Assembly (NCBI GenBank): GCA_964016885.1
Contig: OZ024743.1
Coordinates: forward strand, 159,960,001-160,024,000
DNA length: 64,000 nucleotides
Source: Eledone cirrhosa
Taxonomy: Eukaryota
Direction of reading: 5' to 3'
The position numbers and the translations under genes were made by a program. Below are positions 1,851 through 59,650 of this stretch, piece by piece. Within the stretch, counting starts at the first letter, position 1. Each line of letters starts with the position of its first letter. The notes under the pieces are model-generated. The model did no database searches. It was not told the origin of the DNA and saw only the letters and a list, made by a program, of their open reading frames with translations.

Positions 1851-1960
1851 CAGTATTTTCCGTTGTGTTGTAATATAAATATTACACACAGTAGATTATC
1901 AGCTCACGTAGAGTTTGCTCGACGGTTCCAGTTGTAGTTCCAAAAGTAATCCGGAGAAAA

Positions 1961-2714
1961 ATAGAAAGATTTGAATGGATACAGTTTAGTTGAAAGGAAT
2001 TTATTGACACGTGTTTCTATAACAGTTACATAACCTAAAACAGCTATCTACAAACTTTTAGTTATGCAGACATTCAATATTTCAATGTTATTATTTACTG
2101 TCATTTCATCAGAATAATATTACTGAGGGCCTATTTAGTTTTTATAGAGAATATTAGGAGGGAGGAGTGAAGTTGTTAGAAGAATAGTTGAAGGAGTGGT
2201 TTTTCGATAGCAGTGAGAATTCTTGGTGGCAGTGAGTAATTAGATTCCCATCTGTTGTTTTGACATTTTTTATAGAATATATTATTGGTTATTTTTCTAA
2301 ATCTATAGAAGGATTAGAGATAGTGAAGATATGCGTGGTTGGTTTTGTGTTTGCACTTAATTAACATTCAGACTTAAATTTTTCTTTCAAGTGTACGTAT
2401 CCTTTCACCCACGCATTCACACACAAATATATTTGCACACCTCTACAAAATACATATACACACAATTCACATATTCATACTTACATATATATACACATGC
2501 ATACACATATATACACACATGTATTTATGTACATACATACGCGCTCATGTGTATACATTTTCATACTCAACTTATCTTTATATACACACGTATAGACACA
2601 CACATATATACATACATACTCTACTCCATGTGTACACACATACACATACATACACATCCATATACACATATATACATACATACATATACATACATATATA
2701 TATATATATATATA

Positions 2715-2776
<62 letters not shown>

Positions 2777-3250
2777 TACACATACACACACATACACACA
2801 TATACATATATATATATATATAAGCACTTTAATACATGAACACACTTACATCTAACTATACACATCAAACATATATATATATTTACTTATTTATATACAT
2901 TTTCACATATATATACATACTTATGGACGTTTTTAGACACATTCATTATCGCATATTTGTACCTATTCTCATCAGCATATCTTTTCATTATTAGTATGGT
3001 AATTTAAGGTTATTAATATATGTTGAGAAGAGATTGTTTTTATATTTTTCTAACTAGATTAAGGTTTATATAGTTGGGGGATGTCCCTCTTTTATGTAAT
3101 ATTCGGCTTGTAGTGGGAAAAAAGGGTTTTAGTTCTGTGACGGCAGAATAATGTTCGTTCAATTCTGTTATTCAGCAGTTTCTTCTTGTGTGTGATTATG
3201 TAATAAATCTCAAGATTACACAATTTGCAGAAATTTTGGCTCCTGGAAAA
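1961..3250. repeat. Left arm of 1290-bp inverted repeat (pLTR)
   Basis: Reverse complement of 5380-6669. About 3 substitutions seen by eye; embedded microsatellite lengths are identical (mirror ORFs in the track are identical). Confidence 0.95.
2001..2117 (-). ncRNA. Type I hammerhead ribozyme with extended stem II (PLE 3' UTR)
   Basis: Mirror of 6513-6629. Confidence 0.7.
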
Positions 3251-5347
3251 GCTTTGGGTTTTAGCTAATTTTTCCCATTTTAGGGTAAACTTTTGATCGC
3301 TATCCCTGAGCGTCCAAGCTTTTTCTGCTAGAGTTGTTACATTTCTTTGGCTCTGGTGTTTTATTGAGTAAGAATGCCTATACAATCGAGATTTAAACGT
3401 TGTTGCCGTTGATCCCACGTAATACCACTCGTTGCCTCCGGATTTAATGGTACACTTATAAATAATATTTTTTTCCAGGCAGTTATTGCCGAGGGGGCAG
3501 TTGTCAGGATAGGTGCAGTTACAGTTGTGTACGTTGGGTTTTCTCTGGAGTAGTATTGCGGACGAACTTAGGTGTGGTTTATTTATGTTCTGTAGTGTAT
3601 TGTCTACTGTTTTTTTTGTGTTCTTTGTACTTAAGTTCTTAGTGTTTTCGTTTAACCTTCTAGTATTGATCTTTTTTATGTGTTGTTCAAGGTTTAACGC
3701 TGTAGAGTATGACAGTCTTATAGTGGTAGGGTTTAGGATTTTCTGGTATTTGTGTGATGTGGGAAAATGTCTTTTAATTATTTTAAAGAAGAGTACTGGT
3801 AAATTTGTACTAATGGAGCTATTGTATTCGGGGTTATACCATAAGTACTCTTTGCATCGCTTTCTATTAGTTTTGTTTGTTGGTTTACTGGTGTGCATAC
3901 TATGGTAGTAAGTGTGGTTTGGTGTTGTGTTATTATATCTACCTATGTGGGATTTATTTTGGGTGTTTTGATTGTTCCCATCTATGTACTCTATTTTGTT
4001 GAGGTAGCCTGCTTTACTAAGGGCGTTATCGTAGTACTCGGCGTGTTCCTTAAATACTTGTATGTTAGAAGATAGACCCGAGATTCTAAGGGAAATATTT
4101 TTAGGGATAGATTTAATTATAGGGAAGGGGTGGTTAGACCCAACGTTTACGTATTTGAGATTTTCATTCAATTTATGAAACGGTTTAATCAAACCAGAGT
4201 TTAAATTGAGTGTGACATCCAGGAAGTTAACTACTTTAAGGTTGTATTCATATGTTATAGTTAGTCCTATTTCGAGTAGTAGTTTTCTTATATCTTTGCG
4301 TAGTTTTTCTAGTTTTTGGTTATTAAGGTTTTTAGCTAGGAGGAGAACATCGTCGCGGTATATTCCGCCGTGGAGATTGCTGAATTTTTCCTGGAGTCTA
4401 AAGGCGATAAATAACCCCACAATATCAGTTATTTCCGCCGAATCGTTAGAGCCCATTGTTATGTCAAAGTTAGAGGGTCTATCTTTACGTACCCAATAAC
4501 TGTTCTCAAATTTGACTATAGTTTTCCTAGCTTCTAATATAATCTTAATTTCATCGTTTGTAAGGTCAGAGTTATCCTTAGCAAACTTAATGGCTCTATT
4601 CAAAGTTTCAGGTGATATCGATGAGTAATATTCATCGATATCAAACTGGATAAACTTAGATTTATTCTTATTGCTAATGCTATTAAACCATCTTATTGCT
4701 TCCTGGGTCTTCCCCCAGAGTTTAATGTTAACCTTAGCCTTAATTTGGGGGATGATTCTATCTAAGATATATTTGCTTATTTTACCTATATCTGATTTAG
4801 AGGGGCAGATTAATCTAATTTTAGGGTCATTATCAAAGTTTACCTTGTGGTCCTTAAGATTGAAGGTGGGTACCGCCGGTAAGAGTGGTCCTGTCCTATC
4901 TTCGATTCCGAGATTTTTCACTATTTCGCATGCCTCATCATTGATGTGCTTAAGGGTTACTTCACTCGTTTTTCTATATTTTTTATGTAATTCTTTTCGA
5001 ATGAAGTTGTTGTATGTAGTGCAATCCATAGTGTACAGGTTTGATGTTTTGTCCGCTTTTACTACAATTCCTTTGGTGTTTTTAAGGTCGTCCAGTAGTT
5101 TTTTTATATCTTTCTGTAATTTGCTGTTGGTGTTGCGTCCTTTGAATTTAATTTTAAGGATTAAGTTCATAAGGTCCTGCTCAAATGCATCTAATAGTGG
5201 GTTGGTGGGTGGGTTTTTACAAGTCCTAAAACCGAATTTGTTGTTTACACCACTTTCTAATGTTGAGTTCATACGGCTTCTATCATAGTGGAGCGTTTTC
5301 CACCTGACACGTCGAATGAATTCATTAGTTTTTTGAATCATGCTCAA
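3092..5347 (-). CDS. PLE reverse transcriptase + C-terminal GIY-YIG endonuclease (751 aa, no internal stops)
   Basis: KADK, QFDIDEYYSSI, MGS, YRDD, NFLDVTL, WYNPEY, CNCx5CPLxxxCL, IIY...YVGST..FKSR, CKLC, CRH. The frame upstream of the called start reads WKNIP..EY..QKTNEFIRRVRWK, typical of Naiad-type N-termini. First ATG at 5341. Confidence 0.93.
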   Translation of the reverse strand: MSMIQKTNEFIRRVRWKTLHYDRSRMNSTLESGVNNKFGFRTCKNPPTNPLLDAFEQDLMNLILKIKFKGRNTNSKLQKDIKKLLDDLKNTKGIVVKADKTSNLYTMDCTTYNNFIRKELHKKYRKTSEVTLKHINDEACEIVKNLGIEDRTGPLLPAVPTFNLKDHKVNFDNDPKIRLICPSKSDIGKISKYILDRIIPQIKAKVNIKLWGKTQEAIRWFNSISNKNKSKFIQFDIDEYYSSISPETLNRAIKFAKDNSDLTNDEIKIILEARKTIVKFENSYWVRKDRPSNFDITMGSNDSAEITDIVGLFIAFRLQEKFSNLHGGIYRDDVLLLAKNLNNQKLEKLRKDIRKLLLEIGLTITYEYNLKVVNFLDVTLNLNSGLIKPFHKLNENLKYVNVGSNHPFPIIKSIPKNISLRISGLSSNIQVFKEHAEYYDNALSKAGYLNKIEYIDGNNQNTQNKSHIGRYNNTTPNHTYYHSMHTSKPTNKTNRKRCKEYLWYNPEYNSSISTNLPVLFFKIIKRHFPTSHKYQKILNPTTIRLSYSTALNLEQHIKKINTRRLNENTKNLSTKNTKKTVDNTLQNINKPHLSSSAILLQRKPNVHNCNCTYPDNCPLGNNCLEKNIIYKCTIKSGGNEWYYVGSTATTFKSRLYRHSYSIKHQSQRNVTTLAEKAWTLRDSDQKFTLKWEKLAKTQSFSRSQNFCKLCNLEIYYIITHKKKLLNNRIERTLFCRHRTKTLFSHYKPNIT

Positions 5348-5379
5348 TAAATATTCCTTTCTACCCTGGGTTGGTATGT

Positions 5380-6769
<1,390 letters not shown>

Positions 6770-9786: not shown

Positions 9787-9794
<8 letters not shown>

Positions 9795-10330
9795 TAAAAT
9801 AACGGATTAAAGTTTAAGCAAAGAATCGCTGCTTTCACCCTTAACGGGATCTTCTGAAACTAACAAAGTCAATCTGTGAACGCAGAAGTGAATATTTCAA
9901 AAAACGTTGCAACCGGAGGAACACAGGAAGACGATACTTTGTTTCGTGGAAACGTTACCTGGCAAAGAACGGGAAAAAACGATATACAATACGTCATTAT
10001 TTGAAGCGGTGAAAAACTCGCAAAGACAAAACCACGTTTATGGTATAAAAGAAGTCGTAGACTCATATTCTATTAGGTGGTTCATAGAGACGTTCTCTGG
10101 CAATGAACAGAAAAAACGAAGATAATACGTCATATGTGGGCGTGGAGAACAATTGCACGCAAAGACAAAACCACGTAAATGGTATAACTGAAGTCGTGCC
10201 ATTTATGTTTACAAGCCGAAATTGGCTCAGATTTTTTGTTTCAGATGTGGTCTTTGGTGCAGAGCATTTCCAGGGCCTCAGCGGCACAGAGGTCATATGG
10301 TCTTTTATTACGTTATGCCATCTAGCCCTA
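9787..10330 (-). mobile_element. Family B pLTR-like repeat
   Basis: Shares sequence with 40741-40860, 53358-53545, 58190-58226 and 59553-59590. Has an internal duplication (AAAGACAAAACCACGT..GAAGTCGT at ~10022 and ~10161). Right boundary is uncertain. Confidence 0.55.
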
Positions 10331-10461
10331 GCTGGGATCTCCCAGTGTAACTTCTATTGGGTGTGGTTGTCTTTTAGACTCCAGATATAAGCTGAAAGTG
10401 ACGTCATATTCCTTCTTAAAGGGTAACGAAAAGAATGGGTATGCAGGTAAAGACGCTGCTT

Positions 10462-10901
10462 GATTCACCGAACATTTATTATAATGCTCGGTGTGTTTGT
10501 AAACAAACATCCCGTATTAAGCCGTAGTGTCAAGCAACCATCGTTGCTCGTTTGTTCAACACTGACAAAGGAACGCTGTACTAGTATCAAGCTTATTAGC
10601 TATCGTCAGCAACGTATACCTTCCTGCCAGAATGCTGAACGTATATACTTACCTTATGCATATTAACAGCTGAGAAGCCCAATTTGCATATCGAGTGGGT
10701 TAATCGGCCGGGTGCACCGAAAACGATAAACGGAAAAAATGAAACGAAATTTCATTTCCCACTCTTAGTACGGCTGTTACTTAAATATAAGTATGTACAC
10801 GTACATTCATATATGTATACAGACGTAGAGTAGTATGTATATATATATATACATACATACATCCACACATATACATATGTACGTATGGATTCACCGAACA
10901 T
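10462..10901 (-). mobile_element. Family D retrozyme-like monomer (426 bp + 14-bp terminal redundancy)
   Basis: GATTCACCGAACAT at both 10462-10475 and 10888-10901. Contains a hammerhead and an ATGCAAAT octamer. Homologous to 26840-27124 in permuted order. Confidence 0.75.
10573..10615 (-). ncRNA. Degenerate type I hammerhead (family D)
   Basis: ACGTTG-CTGACGA-TAGCT aata AGCTT-GATA-CTAG-TA-CAGCGT; GAAA has become GATA. Confidence 0.55.
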
Positions 10902-10910
10902 AAGCACATA

Positions 10911-11009
<99 letters not shown>

Positions 11010-11034
11010 TATATCATGGAATTTCATTATATAG

Positions 11035-11083
<49 letters not shown>

Positions 11084-11093
<10 letters not shown>

Positions 11094-11579
11094 TAAACGG
11101 AATAGAAAATGCTGACAAATTGTTCACAGTTGAAAAATGGTTTAATTAGGAATAAAAGAGTATTAGTGATTGTATGGGTTAGTATTCAGTTGTGGTTTTA
11201 AGTTTTTAAGTTTTTACCGGTTGCGCATTTCTAAATGCTTTTCAAAAATAATTTTGAGATAGAGTGTCCGTGATGTTTGCTCTGATCTGATTAGTTTTGG
11301 GAATTCTACCTGTTTTTATGTTAAAAAAGTGGCTCCAGCGTTACTTTGGTGTTGCAAAAATTCTTGTGGTCAGAACAATTTTGATTGGTCGGTAGAGGTC
11401 ATGTGAATGTAAAAAATTGATTTTGCGCCAAGACTGTTTTTATGTTAAAAAAGTGGCTCCAGCGCTACTTGGTGTTTGCAAAATTCTTGTGGTCAAAACA
11501 ATTTTGATTGGTCGGTAGAGGTCATGTGAATAAAAAATTGGTTTTGCGCCAAGATTGAGAAATGACTCTTTCACAACAA

Positions 11580-11619
<40 letters not shown>

Positions 11620-11683
11620 GTAGTAAGATGTTCGATGTTGTGATAATGGTTAGCAGGGATGTGTGTCTAATGGCTATTAAGAT

Positions 11684-11736
<53 letters not shown>

Positions 11737-12298
11737 GCAGAGTAATTCGTGGTAGCAGGGATGGTCAGTAAGAATGTGTCTGAAAGCAATGGGGGGTATT
11801 TTAGCATGTCAAAAGATATTTCTCAATCTTGGCGCAAAACCAATTTTTTATTCACATGACCTCTACCGACCAATCAAAATTGTTTTGACCACAAGAATTT
11901 TGCAAACACCAAGTAGCGCTGGAGCCACTTTTTTAACATAAAAACAGTCTTGGCGCAAAATCAATTTTTTACATTCACATGACCTCTACCGACCAATCAA
12001 AATTGTTTTGACCACAAGAATTTTTGCAACACCAAAGTAACGCTGGAGCCACTTTTTTAACATAAAAAACAGGTAGAATTCCCAAAACTAATCAGATCAG
12101 AGCAAACAGCACGGACACTCTATCTCAAAATTATTTTTGAAAAGCATTTAGAAATGCGCAACTGGTAAAAACTTAAAAACTTAAAACCACAACTGAATAC
12201 TAACCCATACAATCACTAATACTCTTTTATTCCTAATTAAACCATTTTTCAACTGTGAACAATTTGTCAGCATTTTCTATTCCGTTTACCAATATATA
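11084..12298. mobile_element. Fold-back element with ~480-bp inverted arms (probable PLE 3' end)
   Basis: 11084-11563 mirrors 11818-12298. Each arm has a ~120-bp internal tandem duplication. The + arm reads ..LKPQLN.. like PLE C-termini (weak). Flanked by (TA)n. Confidence 0.65.
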
Positions 12299-12311
12299 AT
12301 AACTATTCTTT

Positions 12312-12370
<59 letters not shown>

Positions 12371-12682
12371 ATAAGTTCCCTGTGTCCACGCATCGCCTGG
12401 TAACTTAGCTGAGAACAGACTTCCTGATGACGAAACGGCTTATCCATGCTTTCCATTGGAAACCATGTTTATTCTCTTTCAGAAACTAATTAGTTGGAGT
12501 GAAATTTTAGTAAGTAAGTTAAGTTTTATAATTTTCTTATTTTACGTCTTTCATATAATTGTTCTGCATCCCCTTGCATTGAACCACAAAGTTACTAAGA
12601 CAAAACCTATATATTTGCTAGCATAGGTATGCATCTGTATATATATGTTGGTAGATATACTAATTCTTTATATATACAAATA

Positions 12683-12726
<44 letters not shown>

Positions 12727-13895
12727 TATAGGCATATAATGAAATTTCATTCAAAGCTTTTTCTTCGGTATGTGTGAAAATGTTTGTATAGTTATTTCTT
12801 GTATGTATTTTGGTTCTTTTTCTCAGTGGCTGAAGTGGGCAAATTCTATGTTACATATGCCCTTGATCATGAAAGGGGGCATAAAGCCACCTACATGAAT
12901 GACATTTGCACCTAATGATGTCATTTAGAATGCATTAATTTAGTTCTGGATATTTTGAAGAATTCGTCTTGATTCTGTAGTTGAACAACCTGCAGTCCAC
13001 TCAAGGTTCCTGCTCATTCAGGTAATAATCTAATCTTAATCTTTCCAATCCAGTACAATCCACCTGTGTCACTATTCTATTAACACTATAATTTGGACAA
13101 TTTTATTCATTGAGGGAATTCGAATTAAATGTTCTGAAGCATAGTCTTGAATATGGATTATAACTAAAAGCAGCAAAGTTCCACTCAGCAACCTTTTTAA
13201 ATCGTAAATCTTCTCTTCTTGCTCTCTGTACCCATAGCCTCTGAGTTGTTTGAGCTTCAGTTTCTTTCTGCCGCCTTTGAGCTGCTCTATTTCCATTGCC
13301 CTATCATCAACAAGTCTTTTTGATCTTTGTTCCCCTGATTAATCCTGTCTATTCTGCGCGCTTCTTATTCTTTTTTGTTGAAGCCTTGATGATATTTGTC
13401 AAACTGATTCATCCTGTCTGTTTTGTGCTGACGTTTCGTAGATCTAATTCCTTTAGATGATTAGTTGCTTCTTTGTCCTATCATCAGCAAGCCTTTTTAA
13501 TATTTGCTCTTCTGATTAATTTTGCCAATATTTCGCTGTTGTTGTTCTTTGATTTTAGTGTCTTTCTTGTTTCCTTTTCCCTTTGTTTCATTCTCCCTTT
13601 GTAGATGTTTTACCATAGATTTATGAGACTTTCTTAAAATGAAGGTCGAATCTCCGATGGCAATTTATATTTGCAACTTCCAATGTCGCAATTATTATTT
13701 AAAAATTAAATGTTTTTCTGTTAGTAATGGATCTAAGTCGTGTCCAATTTTGTTAAATGGGAACTCACCTTCACTGATGTTTCGGAAACAACAAAAACTG
13801 ATAGAAATGAATATGCAAAAAATATTCATAAGTGTTATTTTTAGCAGCCAGAGGAAGGATTTTCTCCACCTGCTGACCGACAACTTGACGTTGCC

Positions 13896-15501
13896 ATGTC
13901 AACAAACCAAAGAACCAGCGGCACCAGCAACAACAACAACAACAACAATGCTACGGACGAAAACAACACCAATAACAATAACAACAACAACAAGACCAAT
14001 AACTGTGATAACAACAACAATGATAACAACAACACCACCAACTACAACAGCAACACAAACAAGGAAAAGGTCTCCTTCGCCCAGACGGAAAGGAAAACCC
14101 TCGACTATCTGCCAGTAGATATAACCAAAGCGAAGGAGCTACTGGCAGATGCCAAAAAATACATAATGTACGGGGAAAATTGTGCTTTTTCGAATCCCCC
14201 CCCCCCCCTGGAACTAAAAAGCCAGAGACTCCTAAACACTGTCATGTTTAGGACAATCTCAAATAAAAGCAAAAAACCAGCTCAACCATCAAAGAGTGAG
14301 ATAGAGCTGGTTTTAAAAGACGTCATGAAGGACATCACATTCATTCAGAAGGATAGACTCTACGGGAGTCTATCCATTCTCATGAAGGACAGGGACACAG
14401 CAGTTAAACTGTCCATCAAACCAATTACATCCACGGCATACACCTTCTACCCTACGTACATGGGTAGAAGGACACAAAAATTAAAAATCCACACCATCCT
14501 GCCGATTATGGACATATGGTGGGTTTTGAGAGGTTTCTTGAACCTGGATGATGACACGCTCGTGTCCATGGGAAAGGCATCGGGTGACGCGTTCAGTGGA
14601 ACGAGCCTCGAACTTGTAGTTCAAATGAGGCCCGAAAGGATCGCCCAGATCCCTGAACGCGTCGTACTGGATGATCAAACTTTCATCAACATTACCGTTG
14701 AGGGTAGGCGGCCCTCGTGTTACCTCTGTGGAACCAGAGGTCACCTGAGGGCTGTCTGTCCCCAACTTAATAAGAAAACCCCAATCCTGCCTACACCACC
14801 AACAACTGCACAACCAACACAACCACCACAACCACCACTATAAAAACAACAACCACAGCTCAAACCAAAACAAAATAATGTCCAACCCATCAAAAAAAAA
14901 ACAATTCCCAAAACACCCGCACCGCAAACAACCCGAAAACGTACCCCTCCCCTCCAACGCGGAAGATGACCGTCGTTCGTCGTCAGGCGAGGAGTAGCAC
15001 TTCCACACAATCAAAAGAAAAAAAAGAAAACACACCTCAGACACACAAATGAAAACAACCACGCCCCAAAACATAACACTGACACCAACACAAAAGAGCA
15101 CACAACAACAGCAAACAAAAAACACCACACAAAAACAAAAACATGCATACACATACATAAACACAAGAAACAAAAAAACTGTTAAACATTGTGTACAACA
15201 ACAATTTAATAAGAACCCAAGGGCCTAACTTCACCCAGGCAGGGGATTTCCCCCACCTCAAAATGATTAAGGACACTTATAAAACTCTAAAAGATGACTT
15301 TAAAGAGGACGTGCCCCCCCCCCCTCCCTGCGTCGGGCCCATTGACCGCGTCCTCCTAAAAAAACTACCCCAATCCCTCCCCAAACACCCACACAACACA
15401 CTGATGCCCCTACACTTCCACAAACCACCACCCCACCCAACAACCAATCCCCCACCCTCATGGAAATTGTGCATCCCGATAACCGGGACGCAGAGAGGTA
15501 A
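13896..15501 (+). pseudogene. Tx1 ORF1 (gag-like; poly-Asn N-terminus, CYLCGTRGHLRAVC knuckle), disrupted after 14843
   Basis: ORF 13896..14843 plus downstream homology with copy 2, ending MEIVHPDNRDAER*. Confidence 0.85.
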
Positions 15502-15525
15502 GTGCCTTTTCTCTTCACCACCAAC

Positions 15526-18500
15526 ATGGCTATGCTAAGAGTAGGCTGTTTAAAGCGCGTGGCCTGGGCTCAACTTGGAAGCAAGCAATGCTTCTAAATG
15601 ACCTCAGGTCACAACGTATAGATGTGATGGTTATTTGAGAGGCCCGGATCAGCAACGTGCGACAGCTGGCCTCCACCTTTGATGACTTTGAGATGCACGC
15701 ATCTATCTGTCAGCCCGGAGGTAGGGGTGGGGTGGTCGTTCTGCTGCAAAAACATCTGGGTCTCGCAACACAGACGGTACATTGGACCCGGAGGGTCGAC
15801 TAGTGGTTCTGGACCATGGCAGTGGTGAAGGCGGAGCGTTTAGGTTAGTAGCCGCATACGGCCCTTTCGGGTCAATGCGGCCGGACTTCTTCCATCGTCT
15901 GGAGACTTTTCTAGGGACGTCACGCTCCTTGCTATTAGTGGGGGACTGGAATGGTATCCTAGATGCACGCTGGGACTACGTAGGGGCCTGTCCCGATAAA
16001 GAGGGGTGTAATAGCCTCAAAGGGTTAATCGGTCGATTTGACCTGGCCGATAGATATCGACTATATTTTCCGACTGCGCCAACTTGGACTTGGGCAAATC
16101 GTAGCGGATCATCTAGGTCATACCTAGATAGGTTCATAGTTAGAAATAAGGATAAGGACATTTTAAGTTGTCCAAAAATGAGCATGGTTGGCTATTCAGA
16201 CCACAAGTTAGTGAGCTGCATGGTCAACCTTGACAGAACGCATAGACAGGGACCCGGTTACTGGAAGCTCAACTTGTCCTTACCGGCAAGTAAGGCTTAC
16301 AGGGACCGGATTAGCACTTTAGTTAAGGAGCGGTTGACGGGCACCATCGTCAACAGCAGGTGGTGGGGATCTCTCAAAAGAGATATTAGAGTAGTCTCTA
16401 TAGAATTTAGTAAGGAGTTAGCCTCAAATAGAAATAGGAAGGAAAGGGAGCTGGTAGATAGTGTAGAAGAGGCAATTAGAAGCGGCGACGTGGCCAGAGT
16501 GCTAGCGTCGAGAACGGCCCTGGGCCAGTCCTTCGACGCGAAACACGAAGGCTGCATCGTCCGAAGCAAAATACGTGCTCTGGGAAACGAGTGGACCAAA
16601 GCTGTTAGCTGGGCCCGCTTGACAGAAGCCAAAAGAGGGAGCGGATCCACTATCCGGTCTTTGCGAGACCAGGATGGACGGGTGATCCTTGAATCTAGGC
16701 ATATGTGCGAGGCTTTTCAAAAGCACTTTGCCGGATTGTTCGGAAGGGGCGGGGAGCCGGTTGGGGATGTGTACTTCGGTCCATACCTCGACGGCCTGCC
16801 GCGTCTCTCGGACAGGGAGGCGAAGTCTTGCGAGGAACCGATTTCAGCGACTGAGATAGAGGACGTGCTGAGCCAATGCGGCAAACGCAAATCCCCGGGT
16901 CTCGATGGTCTTCCATACGAACTGTATCTAGCTATGTCGGACTTGTGCCCCGATCTCCTCGAGGCGGTCTACTGCAACTGGCAACAGAACGGGAGAATTC
17001 CCTGTGCTGTGACCAAGGGCGTGGTCACGCTAGTGAGGAAGCACGAGAACAAGGGGGACGATATAAATAATTTCAGGCCCATAACTCTGGTAAATACAGA
17101 GTTACAGATTTTGGCCAAGGTGCTAGCAAAGAGATTGGCGCTTGTCGTGGGCAACCTGGTGGGAGAAGCGCAGACATGTGCTATCCCGTCGAGGTCCATC
17201 CACGACAACCTCCACCTCATGCGATACATCATAGAGAGGGTTGGGAACGAACCCGGCTTTGCTGGAGCCCTGATCAACTTCGATCAATCTAAGGCGTTCG
17301 ATAGAGTCGACCATGGTTACCTGGATGCGGTGCTAGCGGCGGCAGACTCCGGACCCGTTTTCAGGGGCTGGATCAATGCTATGCACAGCAGCTGCATCTG
17401 CTCTAGGGTCAAGGTGAACGGCTACCTCTCGGAGCCGTTCGAAATCGTGCGGTCCATCCGACAAGGATGCCCTCTCTCCTCCCTTCTGTATGTAGTGACT
17501 CTAGAGCCACTGCTGCGGAGTTGGAGTTGTTGCAGAGCATCCCGTTGGAACCGAGATTGCGGAAAACAGTGTCGACGACGTAACAGTATCGGTGTCGACG
17601 GCCTCGGAAATCGGGGCGATCGGCACCTTACTGGAGGAGTACGAAAGGTTTACAGGGGCTAACCTGAACAGGGACAAGTCGCTCGGTCTGCAACTCGGCA
17701 CGTGGAGGGGCAGATCGATGCCCTCCGATGGCGCCGTCGGGCGCTGGACGGAGGGCCCGGTGAAGTTGCTCGGGGTCTGGTTCGGACCAGACCTCCAGGT
17801 GGAGAAGAACGGGGGTGAGGTAACGAACAGGGATTTGCACTGAACCAGAAGTGGGCCGAGTGCAAACTGTCCCTGAAAGGTCGGTGCGGAGGTGGCGAAC
17901 ACTTATATAGCGTCCGTCATCTACTACCGCCTGACCGTTGTGCCTTGCCCAAGCGAAACGCTCGCTAAAATGGAGCGCGCACTCTTCCAAATCCTTTGGA
18001 AGAAGCGGGCTCCTATGGTGAGGAGATCCATCTGCTGTCAACACCCTTCGAAAGGAGGGCTGGGGATGCCGTGGCTAATGATACGTAAACACGCATTAAG
18101 TCTACGGCACCTCCAGGTATTCCTCACCGGTCAACCGGTGAGGGCCCCGTTTGTGAGGCGAGCCTTTCCCAGACTCGTCTCACTCACCGAGCTGCAATCC
18201 TGGGTCAAGCAAAGACCGAGAAAACTGGGCGCCTGGCACACCGAGTGTGCCCAGGCGCTCACGGCTCTCTGGCAGGCGGACCCGGCTGTCAGTGGAGGAT
18301 CCACCTCGTCATTCTATAGAGGGCTGGTGGTTAGCAGGTGCGACGACGCCTTCGGAGAAGCCCTAGGCATGGAGGAAGACGAACTGGACAACCTGTTCGG
18401 TAGGACAGTCAGCCCGGGACCCATGGAGAAATTCCAGAGGTCCCTGGCCTGGCAGTGCTACCGAGGGGCTCTGCCCGTTCGAGAAAGTCTCTACAGATAC

Positions 18501-18950
18501 GGGTGCCCGGGTAGGGACCCCTCAAAAAAGATCTGTCCCAGATGCGTGTGCGACGAGGAAACTGTTGCACACGCTTTGGTACACTGCTCGGGCATTGCCG
18601 ATCTGTGGGGCTATGTCGAACAACTGCTGTCAAGGGTGGGACCGATCCGGTTGACCACCGAGTCTATTGTAACGATCAAGCCGCCTCCCCTCTTCAAAAA
18701 CGATGGAGAGGCGGTGTTTCTGTGCGCAATAGCCATGGCGAAAGAGGTTGTATGGTGGACGCGTCTGAAAGGACTGAGGTCAAACACCTTTCTCTCTGGC
18801 CAACAACTGGTCCGTTTCTTCCGACATCATTTCGGAAGAAGGATCAGGATGGAGAGACAGGTGCTGCACCCCTGCCGTTTCTATGAAAGATGGGTGAAAG
18901 TGGCGCGTATGGCCCGTGTGAATGGGCCTTCACTCTACATCAGACTATAG
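15526..18950 (+). pseudogene. Tx1 ORF2: AP endonuclease, RT, C-terminal CxxC..HxxxxC; frameshifted
   Basis: GDWN, SDH, YWKLN, SPGLDG, RPITL, DQSKAFD, RQGCPLS, GGLG, CPRC...ETVAHALVHC across ORFs 15782..17662, 17592..17843 and 17892..18950. Confidence 0.92.
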
Positions 18951-19246
18951 GTGAGGAAGATGAAAGACCAAGGCAGCACCCCCTCTCTGTGCTCCTGAGG
19001 AGAAGGGTTGCACACTTTTTTTCGGGGGTGTGTGCGACCCCTCAAGGCGCCTCCTCCCTATTGAGGATTTTGTTAAAAAATTTATTTTGTTATATTTTAT
19101 TTTATTTTTATACTTCTATATCTTCTTATTGCCTCCTCCATATTGAGGACGCCTTTGCATGTAATCTCCCCCCTTTGTACTTGTCCCACTTTTGATGCCC
19201 TGGTTGCAAATAAAAAGAAAGTTATCTATCTATCTATCTCTCTCTA

Positions 19247-22200
19247 CCAGACGTGTGTAACTTCGCGGAGAAGTTTCCGTAAATTTATGTAAGAAAAACC
19301 CTGAGTTTTCAGTTAAATTTTATATTATTGTGTAGCTTGACCCTGTCTGGACCCTCAGGCGGTGTGTCAACTCATTTTCGACCCTACAGGGGCGAAATAT
19401 TCGTTTGAAAAATTTTTCTCCATCGAATTTTGAAAAAGTATCGTGAGAAGCTTGATTACGATATGAACGCTGCCTTTGGCGATAATGGTAGTGGAGATAC
19501 TATGGAGATGGAAAGACGAAATCAAATTATAAAAACAAATTCATATCCAAACGACACAAATGACACCAAGCAGTACAATGACAACAACACCAATAATGAT
19601 GATAAAAACAACAATGACAACAACAACAAAGAAAAAAATAAAGACAACACCAATAATACCAGCATCAAAGATAACAACAACACCAACACCAAGGAAAATA
19701 GAACAATATCAACATCAGTGACAACAAGAACAACAACAACAATAACAACAATAATGACAACACCACCAACACAGATAATTCCACAAAGAAACCGAAAATC
19801 TCCTTTGCACAGACAGTTCAGAAAAAGGAGGAACTAACGTATCTCGATATATCAAATGCCGAACAACTTCTAAAGGACGCTAGGAGATACGTTACTTTCG
19901 AAAAGAATGGTGCTTTCAGTACCAATTCCCCTGTAGAAATTCGCAAGTAAACTGACCTCAAAACGATAGTTTTAGGAGAGTTTCCAATACTACGCGAAAA
20001 CCGGGCCAATTGTCACAGAAAGAAATTGACTGGTTTTCAAAAATTCAATGAATGATATTTCATTCATTCACAGAGGCAAACTCTTTGGGAGTATTTCGGT
20101 ACACATGAAGGATCAATTGACGGCCCAAAATTACTCTGTGTCGCCAATTGTATCCAAGCTGTATACCTTTTTCCCTACATACATGTAAAAAAGGACACAA
20201 AAGATTAGAATCATAAGTGTCACACCAAAGGTAAACATATGGTGCATACTGTGCGGCTTCATCAATTTTGATGAATAACAGAATACTTTCAGTAGGAAAG
20301 TCCCCCAGAGATGTATTTAATAGGACAAGCGTTGAAGTTCTGGTGCAAATGAGCCCAGAGAGAATAGCGATGATCCCACAACGTGTACTCCTGGACGGAC
20401 TCACCTACATAAACATTTCGATTGAGGGTAGGCGGCCTTCATGTTACCAATGCTTTAGCAGGGGTCACCTGAAGGCTTCCTGTCCTAAATTAATGAGTCA
20501 AAAAAAGACTCTTCTGCCGACACCCATCAAAATAACACAACCACCAACACCACCACAACAACAACAACACCAACAAACAAAAATAACCACAACAAATACA
20601 GTCCAACCCAACCCCACTCCACCTAAAACCACTACAAAATCACATACAGACACAACAGCTCCCCAAGACATACCCATCCCCAATCACACAGATGAGGCTA
20701 TCTCGTCATCACCCAGTGAAGACGAGGGAGAACCACATCGCTCGAAAAGAAAAAAAAAGACACCGCAAAAAAACCCCCAGCAAACACAACAACAAACATA
20801 CAACCACCAACACAAACAACAAAAACATCACAAACAAAACGCCCACCTCCTGAAAACAAAATACCTAAAACAAAACGAACGCACACACAAGAACTACAGA
20901 CAAAAACAAACACAACACAAAAAAAGTACACTTACACATACATAAACACTGAAAGCAAAACACTAATGGAGACCATCATGAACAACCCTTCGGTGAAAAC
21001 CTAAGGGAAAACTTTCGCCCACTCTATTAAAAATATCAACAAACTGAACCTAAAACTGATTAGGGTCCCTATACAAACTTATAGGTCCATAAAAGAAACA
21101 TTTGAAAAGGATGTGAGGAATACCTGCCTGAAACCACTTAACCGCGTCCTTCTCAAATGTCTCCCCACCCCAGACACCCCCACCCATACACCCCCATCCC
21201 AACAACCCCTCCCCACCAAACATCTACGTCCCCACCCCGCCGGAATCCACTACCCATTCATTCAACTCCTCCAGCACGCCCATGGAAATCGTGCGGCCTG
21301 GTCCCCAGGAGACGAAGAGGTGAGTGATTTCTGTTCCTCCTCTTTTAACTTTTCAGCACCAACATGGCCAGTATAAGAGTTGGATGTGTGAACGTACGCG
21401 GCCAGGGGATGCCCTGGAAACAGGGCAAACACTTAAACGACCTCAAGTCGCACAGTATGGATGTAGTTGTCATTTGCGAGTCCAGGATCCACAGCGAACG
21501 ACATATGGCGCCCATCTTCGACGACTTTGAGATCTACGCATCTCTCTGTCAGCCGGGAGATGGGGGAGGAGTTGCCGTTTTGCTGCGGAAATACCTGGAC
21601 CTCGTAACACAGACGGTACATCTGGACCCGAAGGGTCGTCTGGTGGTCCTAGACGTTGACGGTAGTGAAGGTGGAGCCTTTAGGCTGGTGGCCGCATATA
21701 CCTGATCTGGGACACCGCGGCCAGACTTCTTCAAACGTATAGAGAATGTTCTGGGAACGTCCCGCTCCTTGCTTTTAGTGGGGAACTGGAATGGAATCCT
21801 AGATGCACGTTGGGACTATGTGGGAGCATGTCCCGATAAAGGATGGTGTAACAGCCTCAAACAGTTAATCGGCCGATTTGACCTGGCCATAGATATCGAC
21901 TAGATATTCCGACTGTGCCACTGTGGACGTGGACTAATCGTAGCGGAACATCTAGATCGTACCTAGATAGGGTTCTAGTTAGAAATAAGGATAGGGTTAT
22001 GTTAAGCTGTCCACAAATGTTCATGGTTGCCTATTCAGATCACAAACTATTGACCTGTGTGGTCAATCTTGATAGAACACATAGACAAGGACCCGGCTAC
22101 TGGAAGCTGAACTTGTCGTTACCGACATGCAAAGCCTACAGTAAACGGATTAGCACTTTAGTTAAGCAGCACTTGGGAGGGGCCATTGTCAACAACAGAT

Positions 22201-25030
22201 GGTGGTACTCTCTTAAGAGGGCAGTTAGATTAGACTCGTTAGTTTTAGTAAAGAATTAGCGTTAGATAGAAATAGCACCGAGAAGGAATTGGTAGATAAA
22301 GTAGAAGAGGCAATTAGAAGTGGCAACGTAGCCAGCGTGCTAGCAACGGGAACGGCCTTGGACCAGTTCTTTGACGCAAAGCCCGAGGGCTGCGTTGTCA
22401 GAAGCAAAATACGTGCTCTGGGTAACGAGGGAGCCAAAGCTGTTAGCTGGGCCAGGTGACGGAGGCGAAAAGTGGCAACAAGTCCATGATTCGGTCTTTG
22501 AAGGACCAAGACGGATGCGTGATACGTGAGCGGAAGCAGATGTGCGCGGCCTTTCAGCGGCACTTTGCTCAGCTGTTCGGGCAGAGCGGCGCGCCGGAAG
22601 AAACTATGGATTTCGGTCCATACCTCGACAGCCTACCGCGACTCTCGGACAGCGAGGCGAAGTTCTGTGAAAAGCCGATTTCAGCCGCTGAGATAGGGGA
22701 CGCGCTGAGCCAATGCGGCAAACGCAAATCTCCAGGTCTCGACGGTCTACGCTACGAAATTTAGGTAGCAATGCCGGACTTGTTCTCCAGTCTCCTGGAA
22801 GCGGTCTACTGCAACTGGCATCAGAATAGGAGAATTCCCAGTTCTGTGACCAGGGGCGTAGTTACACTAGTCAGGAAGGACGATAATATGGGAGATGACA
22901 TAGGCAACTTCCGGCCCATAACTCTGCTAAACACAGCGTTACAGATTTTGGCCAATGTTTTGGCAAAGAGGCTGGCGCTTGTCGTCGAAAACCTGGGGGG
23001 AGAAGCGCAGACATGCCCCGACCAGGTCCATACACGACAACCTCCACCTCATGCAATACATCATAGAGAGGGCAGGGTGTATACCCGGCTTCGGTGGGGC
23101 CATGATCAACTTGGAACAGTTCTAAGGCTTTCGATAGGGTTGACCATCGTTTTCTGGATGCGGTGATCGAGGCGGCAGGCTTGGGACCAGTGTTCAGGGT
23201 CTGGATTGATGCATGCACAACAGCAACACCTGCTCAAGGGTCAAGGTGAACGGCTACCTCTCGGAGCCGTTCCATATCACGCGATCCATCCGACAGGGAT
23301 GCCCTCTCTCCTCCCTTCTGTACGTAATAACTCTCGAGCCACTACTGCGGAAGTTGGAGCTATTGCAGGGCATCCCTCTAGAACCGGGACTGCAGAAAGC
23401 GGCGTCGGCCTACGCCGACGATGTGGCAGTAATGGTGTTGAGCACCTCGCAAATAGAGGAAGTCGGCACCTTACTGAAGGAATACAGAAGTTTCACAGGA
23501 GAAAAGCTGAACCGGGACAAGTCCGTCGGTTTGCAACTCGGATAGTGGAGAGCGAAACCGATGCCTTCCGATGGCGTCGTCGGACGCTGGAAGGAAGACC
23601 AGTAAAGCTGCTCGGAGTATGGTTTGGTCTGGACCTCCAGGTGGAGAAAAACTGGAACGAGGTGACGGCCTAGGTGTTTGCACTCACCCAGAAGTGCGCC
23701 GAGTGCAAACTATCCTTAAAGGTTGAGCGGAGGTGGCGAACACTTTTATAGCGTCCGTCATCTACTACCGCTTGACCATCGTGCCTTGTCCAGGCAAAAC
23801 GCTCACCAAAATGGAGCGCGCGCTCTTCCAATTCGTTTGGAAGAAGCGGGTTTCTTTGGTGAGAAGATCCAGCTGCTGCCAACACCCTTCCAACGGAGGG
23901 CTGGGATTACCATGGCTGACGATGCGCAAACACGCGCTCAGACTGCGGCATCTCTACGTATTCCTCACCAGAAACCGGTGTGGGACCCGTTCTGGAGGCG
24001 AGCCTTCCCACGACTCGTCTTGCTGACCGAGCTGCAGTCCTGTGTCAAGCATAGACCGAGGAAAATGGGCGACTGGCACACCGAATGTGCTCAGACGCTG
24101 ACAGCCCTCTAGCAGGCGGACCCGGCGATCAGTGGAGACTCCACTTCGTCATTCTATAGAGGGTTGATCCGCAGCAAGTGCGACGAGCGCGCGCGGAGAA
24201 ACTCTAGGCGTAGAGGAAGACGAACTGGCCAGTCTGTTCGGTAGGACCTTCCGCCCGGGACCGATGGACAACCTCCCAAAGTCCCTGGCCTGGCAGTGCT
24301 ACCGAGGAGCTCTACCAGTTCGAAACAAGCTCTGTAGACATGGGTGCCCGGGCAGGGACCCTTCGAAAAAGATCTGTCTGAGGTGTGTGCGAGACGAAGA
24401 AACCATCGCGCACGCATTCATACACTGCCCAGGCGTTACCGACCTGTAGGCCTATGTAGAACGACTATTGTCGCGGATGGGACCAATCCGGTTGACTGCA
24501 AATTACATTGTCATGATAAAACCACCAACCTCCTTCAAAAACAAAGGAGAGGCGGTTTTCATTTGTGTGATAGCTATGGCGAAAGAGGTTGTATGGTGGG
24601 CGAGGTTAAAAGGGCTGAGGTCAGACACCTTTCTCTCCGGCCAACAGCTGATTCTTTTTTTCAAATACAACTTTGGAAGATGAATCAGGATGGAGAGAGA
24701 GGTGCTGTACCCCAGCAAGTTTATGAAAGGTGGGTGAAAGTGGCGAGAATGGCCCGAGTGGATGGGCCTTCTCTCTATATCAGCCTGTAGGTTGAGGAAA
24801 AGGGGGAGGAGAGGAAAGGAGTACAAACTCTTCGTACTCCTGGAGATGAGGGTTGCACATTTTTTCGGAGGTATGTGTTACCCATATGAACTGTCTCCCC
24901 CTATTGGGGGAAAATCGACTAATTTTTTTAATTGTATTTGTGATAACATTTTACACCTTTTTATTGTATGTAAACCTCCCCGTTTGTATTTGTCCCCTTC
25001 TTTTGTGCCCCTGTGGCTAATAAAGTAACA
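19247..25030 (+). mobile_element. Tx1/L1-clade LINE, array copy 2 (apparently full length, decayed)
   Basis: 5' UTR, ORF1 (~19463-21323, CYQCFSRGHLKASC), ORF2 (21364-24790, YADD in ORF 23213..23545), AATAAA at ~25019, then TATCTATCT. Confidence 0.92.
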
Positions 25031-25040
25031 TATCTATCTT

Positions 25041-26835
25041 CGGATGGTATAGACGTTCTTCACATCGGCTCCTAGTGTATTGGAGATATTACGTGTTAAC
25101 AGTAAGTGTTTGTCTGTATTCTTGCGTTATTGTGTTAATTAACCCCCTTGCCTGGGTCTTCGGAGATTAGGGTTAATTTATTTCACCCCTTTTGGAGTGA
25201 AAATTGTCATCCTAAACGTCTTGTAATTGTCTCTACGCTAGTGGTAATGGAAGCCATTACCACAGGTAACGATGACACGCCCACTAAACAAATTGAAAGA
25301 GAGCGGGTAGCGGTGGCAACAAGCCTCCCTACTGAAAGAATAATGATTATTAGAAACATTGAAAAAATGGAGGCTAACCCTAATGAAAAAAATGTGAAAA
25401 AAATTGACTCGGAGAAATTGCCAACATTAATGGATGCCATTTCAACTTTTCACGATGCCACACCCACCAGCAAAGCTGAAAGAGAACTAGTAACTGTAAC
25501 TACAAGTCTCTCAGATACTGAAAATATAAGTGAACATTTTGAAAAAATGGAGTCTAATTCCATAAATAACACAAACACAACAAAAAATGAAAATTGTAAC
25601 AACAAAAAACAAGAAAACCACATTTCGACAATTGTAAACAGAGAGGGGGCGAACAAAATGACGTTCGCGCAAAGCATAAAAAAAACTATCGTGTACGAAC
25701 CTATTGACATTTCGAACATGGCCCAGCAAATGGAAAATGCACGGAAGTATATAACTTTGGAAGAGAATGGTCTATTTTCTTTAAATTCTCCCCCAGAGCT
25801 AAAAAAAGAAAATAGCTTAAAAACTATTATTTATAGGACAATATCGAACAAAACCCGTAAGCCAGTACAACTCACACTGACAGATTGAACTAGCGTTAAA
25901 AGATCATCTGAAACACATTGTATTCATTCGGAAGGATAGATTCTACGGTAGTCTATCCATCCGAATGAAAGATAAATTGAGAGCCGAAAAACATTCCCTG
26001 GCCGCTATTGTGTCCCCTTTATTTACCTTCTTCCCCACTTATTTGAGATAGATATCGACTAGATTTTCCGACTGTGCCAACCTGGACTTGGAGAAACCAC
26101 TGCGGTCAATCTAGATCGTACCTAGATAGGTTCTTAGTTAGAAATAAGGATAGGGAATTTTTAGGTTGTCCAAAAATGCTCATGGTTGGCTATTCAGACC
26201 ACAAGTTAGTGACCTCCATGGTCAACCTTGATAGAACGCATAGACAGGGACCCGCTTACTGGAAGCTCAACTTGTCCTTACCGGCAAGTAAAGCTTACAG
26301 GAACCGGATTAGTACATTAGTTAAGGAGCGGTTGACGGGCGCCATCGTCAACAGCAGGTGGTAGGGCTCTCTCAAAAGAGAGATTAGAGTAGCTTCAATA
26401 GGAGTTAGTAAGCAGTAGCCTCAGATTGAAATAGGAAGGAAAGGGAGTTGGTAGATAGTGTAGAAGAGGCAATTAGAAGCGGCGACGTAGTCAGGGTGCT
26501 AGGGTCGAGAAACGCCTTGGGCCAATTCTTCGACGCGAAACACGAAGGCTGCGTTGTCCGAAGCAAAATACGTGCTCTGGAAAACGAGGGGCCCAAAGCT
26601 GTTAGCTGGGCCCGCGTGACAAGTCAAAAGTGGGACTAGATCCACTATCCGGTCTTTGCGAGACCAGGATGGACGGGTGATCCTTGAACCTAAGCAGATG
26701 TGCGAGGCCTTTCAAATACACTTTGTCCGATTGTGCGGAAGGGGCGAGGGACCGGATGGGGATGTCTACATCGGTCCATGCCTCGACGGCTTGCCGCGTC
26801 TTTCGGATGAGGTGGCGACGTCCTGCGAGAGGCCG
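25041..26835 (+). mobile_element. Tx1/L1-clade LINE, array copy 3 (internal deletion or chimera, 3'-truncated)
   Basis: ORF1 from ATG 25247 to ..FFPTYL (~26045) joins directly to mid-endonuclease DRYRLDFP.. of ORF2. Confidence 0.85.
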
Positions 26836-26839
26836 AGCT

Positions 26840-27124
26840 CAACTAGAACATCGTTCCTGTGTCAGTGTTGAACAAAAAGGTGACGTGGTTGCCTAAACAC
26901 TGTACGGCGTAATTCGGGCTGTTTGTTTGTTTACAAACAGACAAACCGTGCATTATAATAAATGTTCGGTAAACCGATACGTGCATATATATATATGTGT
27001 GCATGTATGTATATATATACATACTACTGTACGTCTGTATACATATATGTATGTACGTATACATACATACTTACATTTAAGTAACTGTCGTACTAATAGT
27101 GAGAAATGAAATTTTGTTTCATTC
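26840..27124 (+). mobile_element. Family D element, circularly permuted partial copy
   Basis: Matches revcomp(10462-10585) and then continues directly into revcomp(10738-10901). Confidence 0.75.
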
Positions 27125-27246
27125 TATACCATTTATATATATATATATATATAAGTAAATTTGTATTCCAATGTTACTAAGTAGTTGCATTGGATGGAGT
27201 CAATAAATTCTTTATACCCGCATTTCTATTTCATAAACTTCTTCTC

Positions 27247-58502: not shown

Positions 58503-58566
<64 letters not shown>

Positions 58567-58780
58567 GTTAGAAGTGTACATCCACATATGTATACTGAAA
58601 TACTAGTATGCATATAAATACACACACGTATACATATGTAGATGTACCGAGTTTTTAACTGGACACTTTACTGTGAGTGTTCAGCTAGTCTGTATGTAAA
58701 CACACAGACAAACCGGTTTTTAGAGTCATACTGGTTTTCGAGGAAACACCTTTCCTCTATTCTCCAGAGGGCCAGACAGG

Positions 58781-58825
58781 AATATTGGACTAGTTTCGAT
58801 GTTGTTACATCTCATCAGCAATATT
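58781..58825 (-). ncRNA. Canonical type I hammerhead ribozyme (mirror copy)
   Basis: Exact reverse complement of 59204-59248. Confidence 0.9.
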
Positions 58826-59203
58826 TACCCATCCTCCGGCCCCTCTAGAGAATCGTAAAAGCACATATCGTTATATGCTTTTTCTATGAAAATTAGTAGT
58901 GGGCAGACTAATTTGCATAGAGCGTGAGTACGTACCCGTTCAGCGGAAGCGATAAAAACAAATAACGAAACGAAATTAAATTTTGTACACTTCTAACTTA
59001 ATTGTTTAAGCGTCAGTCATACAAAAGTGAGTTACAAACGAAACGAAATTTAATTTCGTTTCGTTATTTGTTTTTATCGCTTCCGCTGAACCGGTACGTA
59101 CTCACGCTCTATGCAAATTAGTCTGCCCACTACTAATTTTCATAGAAAAAGCATATAACGATATGTGCTTTTACGATTCTCTAGAGGGGCCGGAGGATGG
59201 GTA

Positions 59204-59248
59204 AATATTGCTGATGAGATGTAACAACATCGAAACTAGTCCAATATT
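59204..59248 (+). ncRNA. Canonical type I hammerhead ribozyme
   Basis: AATATTG-CTGATGA-GATGT aaca ACATC-GAAA-CTAG-TC-CAATATT: 7-bp stem I, 5-bp stem II, palindromic stem III, site GUC. Confidence 0.92.
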
Positions 59249-59650
59249 CCTGTCTGGCCCTCTGGAGAATAGAGGAAAGGTGTTTCCTCGAAAACCAGTA
59301 TGACTCTAAAAACCGGTTTGTCTGTGTGTTTACATACAGACTAGCTGAACACTCACAGTAAAGTGTCCAGTTAAAAACTCGGTACATCTACATATGTATA
59401 CGTGTGTGTATTTATATGCATACTAGTATTTCAGTATACATATGTGGATGTACACTTCTAACTTAATTGTTTAAGCGTCAGTCATACAAAAGTGAGTTAC
59501 AAACGAAACGAAATTTAATTTCGTTTCGTTATTTGTTTTTATATATATAATTATTATTTGCTTAAACTTTAATCTGTTATTTTAATAAATATATATATTT
59601 TAATAAATATATATATATATATATATATATGTGTGTATATATATATATAT

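Follow-up and report, generated by a model that had tools for sequence, protein, structure and literature searches.

Two copies of a ~430-nt element with a hammerhead ribozyme motif lie in a 64,000-nt window of the Eledone cirrhosa genome (contig OZ024743.1, assembly GCA_964016885.1), the whole stretch of DNA analysed here. The initial annotation took them for circularly permuted footprints of a viroid-like circular RNA, reverse transcribed by an enzyme borrowed from a Penelope-like element (PLE). This raises the question of what RNA was the template, where copying began and which enzyme was responsible. We conclude that the family is best read as a new member of the known non-LTR retrozymes, a very large one and from a cephalopod, and consider it likely that a (TA)n-targeting PLE supplied the RT/endonuclease that inserted its copies, probably from circular RNA. 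Since the retrozyme class has already been published, the element itself is no surprise. However, a 2020 review described animal retrozyme repeats without a motif naming the autonomous partner (PMC7761336), and the available text of a 2026 preprint states that the retrozyme mechanism is still to be elucidated (10.64898/2026.07.22.740005). A footprint pointing to PLE mobilisation makes both partner and mechanism testable.

The hammerhead unit and its copies

The unit is 420-430 nt long (about 424; 422-426 nt in natural arrays) and has a GC content of 38%. A 19-mer of the ribozyme had 9,122 exact matches genome-wide (control, 0), and CTGATGA..GAAACTAGT, which captures related families, was matched 23,710 times (control, 4), giving at least 32,800 hammerhead motifs for the clan in the 3.0-Gb genome. 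As annotated, the unit has no ORF: on either strand of a natural array of 7.5 units, stop-free stretches reached 63 codons at most. Its length falls within the range of the short, non-coding tandem units of non-LTR retrozymes (about 150-450 bp), and tandem clusters with type I motifs support the earlier assignment to that kind of family. Folded as a circle, the unit scored well below shuffles (z -8.5), also after removal of its AT-rich arm (z -5.0).

Every family unit carries a type I hammerhead motif, with the GAAA core intact in 46 of 47 units from the first 30 loci, five of which are duplicates of one insertion. In 11 distinct units from three (sub)families, all related lineages, 6 of 15 pairs in helices I and II change on both sides, and 95% of cells are paired in the helices vs 34-52% in slid controls. 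These compensatory changes between families suggest selection for cleavage. The young-subfamily ribozyme combines a 1-bp helix III with a U.U mismatch at the base of helix II, and the palindromic 1-bp helix III predicts cleavage as a dimeric ribozyme. In the available text of Cervera and de la Pena 2020 (PMC7229834), axolotl HHR_Amex1 likewise has a 1-bp helix III with a palindromic tetraloop, HHR_Amex2 has a U.U mismatch at the helix II base, and these axolotl/newt satellite hammerheads cleave better as dimers. The weak features are thus split over two ribozymes there and joined in one here, a comparison by features only. A good motif is no guarantee of activity, as one of nine tested Xenopus dimers cleaved in the portion available of Li et al. 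(10.64898/2026.07.22.740005). Single-strand folds of the bare ribozyme were no better than shuffles; those including the long helix I reached z -2.2 for copy 1 and z -4.9 for a sister family. Rfam gave no hammerhead match at copy 1 or copy 2 and an HH9 match below the gathering score at the sister element only (58766-58836 and 59193-59263); its miRNA matches in the window are artefacts of TA repeats.

Features of the window (monomer positions refer to the 426-nt unit of copy 1)
Feature	Position	Strand	Details
Intact Penelope-like element, assigned on motifs to the Hydra clade	1851..6669	-	780-codon frame 3092-5434; 3' arms inverted; one-sided tail of 110 nt (1960-1851)
Coding PLE fragment, older, 5'-truncated, internally deleted	9787..10461	-	GIY-YIG end and 3' end in (TA)n; adjoins copy 1
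Copy 1, long inverted arm	10462..10901	-	monomer 1-426 plus 1-14; young subfamily
Type I hammerhead of copy 1	10573..10615	-	helix I ACGUUG/CAGCGU; CUGACGA core; U.U at helix II base
Arm of 14 nt with the short 3' end of the family	10904..10917	+	monomer 104-117, 13/14 match, then (TA)n
LINE fragment	26047-26836		5' end of copy 2 joined inside it
Copy 2, 5'-truncated arm, older subfamily	26841..27136	+	monomer 316 via 426/1 to tail end 176, then (AT)n
Sister retrozyme family, ~465-nt unit	58562..59541 (approximate)	.	two inverted arms; short and tailed ends in (TA)n
Intact hammerheads of the sister family	58818 and 59211	- and +	

Copy 1 is, as first described, one 426-bp monomer with a 14-bp terminal redundancy, ATGTTCGGTGAATC recurring on the minus strand at 10901-10888 and 10475-10462 with period 426. 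This redundancy arises by accident from how far an inverted arm extends. The copy stands at 98% identity and differs from the family's commonest letter at 6 of 298 core positions. Copy 2 is 78-83% identical to copy 1; it does begin near the predicted cut (8 nt before it) and cross 426/1 as annotated, but it ends at 27136, not at 27124. Nor is 426/1 a natural end-to-start junction, the fixed ends of the family lying elsewhere (see below). The annotated hammerhead was found in copy 1 (helix III of 1 bp with a palindromic CUAG loop, predicted cut after 10579), but its core reads GAUA (DNA GATA) in place of GAAA owing to a change at 10586, and in copy 2 the ribozyme's 5' half is missing and the cut triplet is GAA. 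A descriptor scan detected no hammerhead on the opposite strand of either copy. Both copies are likely dead products. The closest named relatives of the LINE are in Argonauta.

Because a PLE endonuclease fragment starts at 10461, we considered whether copy 1 is a chimera made when a PLE RT switched template from its own RNA to the retrozyme. We set this reading aside as less probable because the fragment (92-94% identity to relatives, 94% to the best matches) is more diverged than copy 1 (98%), and because copy 1 has a short primed arm on its other flank. It is at that arm (10904..10917) that the copy 1 insertion was likely primed. Inverted arms as short as this one stand before 4 of 100 family arms, and among 628 control TA-tract ends the single match to the short arm was copy 1's own.

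Ends of the copies and a co-resident Penelope-like element

The family has two fixed 3' ends, monomer 117 and monomer 176, which are separated by 59 nt and both lead into (TA)n. At 117, 4,850 copies stop (control, 15); at 176, 4,047 stop in (AT)n, 5,066 continue into the next unit and 300 carry G or T next, with no shared new sequence in 30 of the latter sampled. The 5' ends are scattered and often inverted, with an inverted family arm in 43 of 100 tail-ended arms, and opposite arms share rare variants at 8 of 51 loci vs 350 of 44,930 between-locus pairs. A Rayleigh test of 5' ends gave p 0.53 (67 arms of 150 nt or more); along the unit they are uneven, with an excess at monomer 102-232 (chi-square p 0.004). 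Judged by its ends (3' fixed, 5' variable, arms often inverted), the family has no LTR architecture. The fixed 3' ends rule out random permutation of both ends, which had been read as the footprint of a circle. The initial annotation had also named fixed ends in all genomic copies as the sign against a circle; this holds for the 3' ends and fails for the variable 5' ends.

The same anatomy was found in an intact, young PLE of the window. Its 780-codon frame contains DKT, YRDD, CxCX5C and GIY-YIG motifs, and we assign it to the Hydra clade on the DKT motif, the CxCX5C linker, the lack of a CCHH cysteine pair, the C-terminal GIY-YIG and the (TA)n target; Pfam and PDB searches with the frame gave no match. 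Among 20 fetched copies, 19 had the end motif. In 12 of these the copy stops at the motif and in 7 one identical tail of 110 nt follows, and (TA)n comes next. A second coding PLE family has both end types as well. The two-ended, tailed, (TA)n pattern of the intact element matches that of the retrozymes, which makes it a candidate for the type of mobiliser. The sister family, whose assignment has a score of 131 (24 +/- 3.4 for shuffles), has short and tailed ends in (TA)n too. Insertion anatomy thus points to a Penelope-like RT, in line with the borrowed enzyme first proposed, and places priming inside the unit, off the ribozyme-made end. When the unit was compared with the 3' regions of the two coding families tested, similarity was not significant, so that sequence points to neither as the partner. 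A word common with the second family, GCATA(A)GGTAAGTA, was rejected, as its score of 37 lies within shuffles (maximum 39) and it is missing in older subfamilies. A descriptor scan for a hammerhead in the intact element was negative, though CTGATGA words are present in its arms.

Passage of the cut site and tandem arrays

If copying ended at the cleavage site, matches should be lost there. Exact-match counts fell from 9,285 to 8,777 on adding 3 nt across the cut site and from 8,777 to 8,285 on adding the next 3, a loss of 5.5% vs 5.6% in the control. The read-through noted in copy 2 is therefore seen genome-wide, and the lack of excess loss indicates that the template was circular or an uncleaved multimeric RNA. 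Nor are 5' ends enriched at the cut site (4 vs 1.9 expected, p 0.13). Half of 100 tail-ended arms (51) cross it and 37 are longer than one unit, with per-lap survival of 33/97, 6/33, 2/6 and 1/2, a mean copied length of ~350 nt and no cap at one unit.

By hand count, 15 of 62 clusters have at least two hammerheads in tandem. Array L104 has 7 on one strand, L103 has 9 or more units and one sister-family array has 31. In the period-2 arrays L063 and L103, inner units are identical and terminal units differ, which fits local duplication and not one rolling-circle pass; we therefore do not take array periodicity to prove dimer or trimer circles. In L073 and L104, shared variants distinguish units within one insertion, and L083 and L065 are arrays of mixed subfamilies. 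Some long arrays look locally duplicated. The period-3 array L010 is ambiguous between dimer/trimer circle and local duplication readings.

Proposed route, rivals and known systems

In the route that we propose, arrays with two or more hammerheads would be transcribed and cut as dimeric ribozymes, and the monomer would be ligated to a circle, by analogy with relatives. The footprint shows that copying begins at a TA tract and at monomer 117 or 176, which lie downstream of the cut site by 220 and 279 nt, and not at the ribozyme-made end; it then passes the cut site and often finishes in an inverted second arm. The enzyme would come from a Hydra-clade (or another TA-targeting) PLE, and arrays would later grow through local duplication, as seen at some loci. 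The specific version, in which a Hydra-clade Penelope RT primes inside a ribozyme-made circle at these two fixed sites and copies round, is one that we put forward tentatively. If true, tens of thousands of insertions would record the mobiliser of animal retrozymes, along with the circular template long proposed for Penelope partial tandems and tails, and the 424-nt circle and intact co-resident ORF would form a minimal system.

The same family and PLE enzyme could do without a circle if the template were linear RNA, transcribed through a genomic array and left uncleaved, with long arrays made by local duplication. Arrays of 7-31 units, their period-2 and period-3 patterns, the slow cleavage predicted from the weak helix III and the U.U at the helix II base, and the rarity of variants common to both arms (only 8 of 51 two-armed loci) all suit this reading; we nevertheless regard it as unlikely, given the signs of selection for cleavage in helices I and II and the cut site's lack of surplus 5' ends, some of which cleaved linear RNA should leave. 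The 5'-end excess at monomer 102-232 and the mixed-subfamily arrays would be expected of a linear mini-PLE, that is, a unit-length RNA starting near monomer 130-230 and ending at 176, with tandems made by RT jumping from the 5' end to the next RNA's 3' end. This is quite improbable: the 176/177 junction is seamless in all 5,066 exact read-throughs, 0 of 30 sampled G/T variants have shared new sequence, and the conserved ribozyme would be left unexplained.

The initial annotation had allowed that the copies might be pLTR fragments of a longer coding PLE. The family's anatomy is that of PLE ends, copy 1 adjoins a PLE endonuclease fragment, and Xenopus retrozymes resemble pLTRs in the available text of 10.64898/2026.07.22.740005. 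However, units at sampled loci are preceded by another unit, by an inverted arm, by TA or by unique DNA, none of 29 other fetched copies of the abutting PLE family has a unit at the matching junction, and no PLE frame with RT/GIY-YIG runs into a unit in the loci scanned, a sample of the genome that a rare or extinct parent could escape. We judge this origin highly improbable. Size, strong self-pairing and the hammerhead recall a viroid-like RNA that replicates from RNA to RNA and is only occasionally reverse transcribed, a reading that we find scarcely credible, as a descriptor scan detected no opposite-strand hammerhead in either window copy and the spread is accounted for, without RNA replication, by DNA copies that number tens of thousands and have PLE-type ends. 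The label of viroid-like replicon goes beyond evidence read from DNA.

As described in the available parts of Cervera and de la Pena 2020 (PMC7229834) and Li, Clavereau and Pollet 2026 (10.64898/2026.07.22.740005), metazoan non-LTR retrozymes are likewise non-coding tandem units of a few hundred bases with GC below 50%, one type I hammerhead per unit, a highly self-paired predicted circle, monomers to long multimers, and PLE co-occurrence. They differ in that circRNA and cleavage were detected there, whereas the present family is known from DNA alone. Those parts report no fixed 3' ends, one-sided tail, 5' inversions or (TA)n targeting, and name no cephalopod among the species. If expressed like coral, mussel and axolotl retrozymes, the family would give a cephalopod an abundant class of circRNA. 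Hydra-clade PLEs (Craig et al., 10.1101/2021.04.23.441226) share the (TA)n target, partial tandems, 5' truncation, inverted 5' copy and one-end tail; the retrozymes differ from them in having no ORF and no sequence similarity to either coding family tested. A preference for microsatellites is seen in Naiad and Neptune elements, too (10.1101/2021.04.23.441226). The tail measures 59 nt in the family, 65-70 in the sister family and 110 in the coding element vs 30-40 bp for PLEs in the same source.

A probable non-LTR retrozyme family

The two window copies of the ~424-nt hammerhead repeat (table) belong to a family that is a non-LTR retrozyme on every DNA-testable feature, the class that the initial annotation had named. 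Its ribozyme 19-mer has 9,122 exact matches in the genome, and a looser pattern for related ribozymes, which takes in a sister family of ~465-nt units along with older subfamilies, has 23,710. Arrays run to 7.5 units in locus L104 and at least nine in L103; one sister locus (G000:C1:5738327-5752414) has 31, spaced at ~466 nt and with an inverted arm at the 5´ end.

By descriptor scan, copy 1 carries a type I hammerhead whose CUGACGA lies at monomer 293 and whose predicted cut comes after 323 (position 1 is window position 10901). Its core reads GAUA in place of the GAAA retained in 46 of 47 units from the first 30 loci, and the changed position is required for hammerhead activity. Copy 2, a member of an older subfamily, begins near the predicted cleavage site, as first annotated (8 nt ahead of it, with the remainder of the ribozyme absent), and crosses the monomer junction, reading on to 176. 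Each copy is without two hammerheads and is therefore not able to release a monomer. When 11 distinct units of three lineages were compared, six of the ribozyme's 15 pairs had changed on both sides, with pairing in 95% of cells compared to 34-52% in slid controls. Helix III consists of a single pair capped by the palindrome CUAG; ribozymes of this form cleave as dimers, according to PMC4209133 and PMC7229834. Folded as a circle, the natural cut-to-cut unit has a predicted energy of -145.6 kcal/mol (-99 +/- 5.5 for 60 shuffles), and z is still -5.0 without the AT-rich arm.

In the features that DNA can show, the family behaves like the metazoan non-LTR retrozymes (PMC7229834; 10.64898/2026.07.22.740005; PMC7761336). 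No cephalopod retrozyme report was found in the literature searched, largely the main text of papers available without subscription. The lasting value lies in a population-scale footprint, combining internal fixed priming sites, a PLE (Penelope-like element) tail, seamless cut-site passage and the presence, in this genome, of an intact candidate enzyme.

Features of the window
Feature	Position	Strand	Details
Tail with predicted hairpin, coding PLE	1850-1965	minus	z -2.7
Intact Hydra-clade PLE	1851-6669		99.8% identical inverted arms
PLE open frame	3092-5434	minus	780 codons; DKT, YRDD, CxCX5C, GIY-YIG motifs
Copy 1	10901-10462	minus	426-nt unit plus 14 repeated bases
Tail with predicted hairpin, family	10726-10790	minus	z -0.8
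Short arm	10904-10917	plus	14 nt, 117 end
Inverted repeat	11028-12365		540 nt (96%); two 123-nt tandem units inside
LINE copies	15506-19040, 21342-24883, 26047-26836, 57155-57557		endonuclease, RT, zf-RVT domains
Copy 2	26841-27136	plus	monomer 316 through 426/1 to 176; 78-83% identity
Further hammerheads	28732, 41123	minus	
Further hammerheads	28902, 38213	plus	
Sister family copy	about 58562-59541		
Tail with predicted hairpin, sister family	59462-59545	plus	z -3.6
Tc1/mariner-type transposase fragment	61515-62195		HTH domains

Fixed 3´ ends and scattered 5´ ends

Ends were sampled on contig C1 at two sets of 100 loci, those of the first ribozyme matches and those of the first tail-end matches, and the samples are thus ordered by position rather than similarity. 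The 3´ ends lie at one of two monomer positions, 117 or 176, and are followed by (TA)n, while the 5´ ends are scattered. Genome-wide, 4,047 copies end at 176, 5,066 continue and in 300 the next base is G or T (each of the 30 that were read was a point variant, a TA tract or a unique flank); 4,850 end at 117, by a pattern that also catches older subfamilies. The apparent permutation is therefore 5´ truncation from fixed priming sites, and the circular permutation initially proposed is not supported. Random permutation of copies was rejected as a misreading of an inverted arm and 5´ truncation.

Among tail-ended arms, 51 of 100 go past the cut site and 37 of 100 are longer than one unit. With three local duplicates removed, survival per lap is 33/97, 6/33, 2/6 and 1/2 and the mean arm run ~356 nt. 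An inverted family arm lies at the 5´ end of 43 of 100 arms (after removal of 13 hits, probably TA artefacts), with a 117 end on the opposite strand in 23 of the 43. Copy 1 is such an inverted arm, of an insertion probably primed at the 117 end: the short arm beside it has a form found in 4 of 100 family arms, with no other among 628 control TA-tract ends. The hairpins predicted shortly before the tail end in the family, the sister family and the coding PLE are a possible recognition signal.

Probable circular or multimeric template

Extending the search pattern by three bases across the cut site lowered the count by 5.5% (9,285 to 8,777), and the following three bases lowered it by 5.6% (8,777 to 8,285). 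In the arm sample, four ends lay within 5 nt of the cut site, where 1.9 were expected (p 0.13). With no excess of loss or ends there, the usual template was not the cleaved linear monomer, barring precise jumps by the RT; a circle would fit, as would an uncleaved multimer. Templates of circular form, and mobilisation by PLEs, have been proposed already in PMC7229834, 10.64898/2026.07.22.740005, PMC7761336 and PMC4209133. Three things count for a circular RNA: apparent selection on the ribozyme, arm length uncapped at one unit, and rare variants that opposite arms have in common at 8 of 51 loci, versus 0.8% of between-locus pairs (five loci containing local duplicates or a pair of separate insertions were omitted). 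This sharing could, however, stem from conversion between arms, and unlike units inside one insertion (L073, L104), an excess of 5´ ends at monomer 102-232 (p 0.004) and period-2 variant patterns in L063 and L103, best read as local duplication, count against the circle. A period-3 variant pattern was seen in array L010 (1148-3339), and old and young subfamily units are mixed in L083 and L065.

Likely Penelope-like mobiliser and neighbouring elements

The PLE frame in the window, not recognised by Pfam, matches the definition of the Hydra clade given by Craig et al. (10.1101/2021.04.23.441226). Its RT region has 131 scored genomic matches, each with 99-100% identity, and many of them hold 785-codon open frames, indicating that this PLE was recently active. 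Of 20 fetched copies, 19 have the end motif; 12 of these stop at the motif and seven after an identical 110-nt tail, with (TA)n next. Short and tailed ends also occur in a second coding family, which is represented next to copy 1 by a fragment. This pattern is the same as in published PLE anatomy, which comprises partial tandems, inversion and a one-sided tail. The unit has no significant similarity to the 3´ regions of either coding family, and in the scanned loci a PLE frame never continues into a unit. That the mobiliser is a PLE enzyme is well supported as to kind, rather than as to a particular partner family; the borrowed PLE RT that the initial annotation named is the likely enzyme, the insertion anatomy being of PLE type.

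The genome holds many hammerhead-bearing mini-elements. Further hammerhead families, in the window and in many fetched loci, sit in small TA-flanked elements, often inverted, with helix III palindromes TATATA, TGCGCA, CGCG, GTAC and TGATCA; in one of them the units are 310 nt long and stand in tandem (L067, L080). The 540-nt inverted repeat lies between TA tracts and adjoins copy 1. The closest named relatives of the LINE are Argonauta proteins (60-66% identity), which makes an octopod the probable host. A few low-depth family contigs were seen in sequencing runs X10 and X11, labelled as two other organisms.
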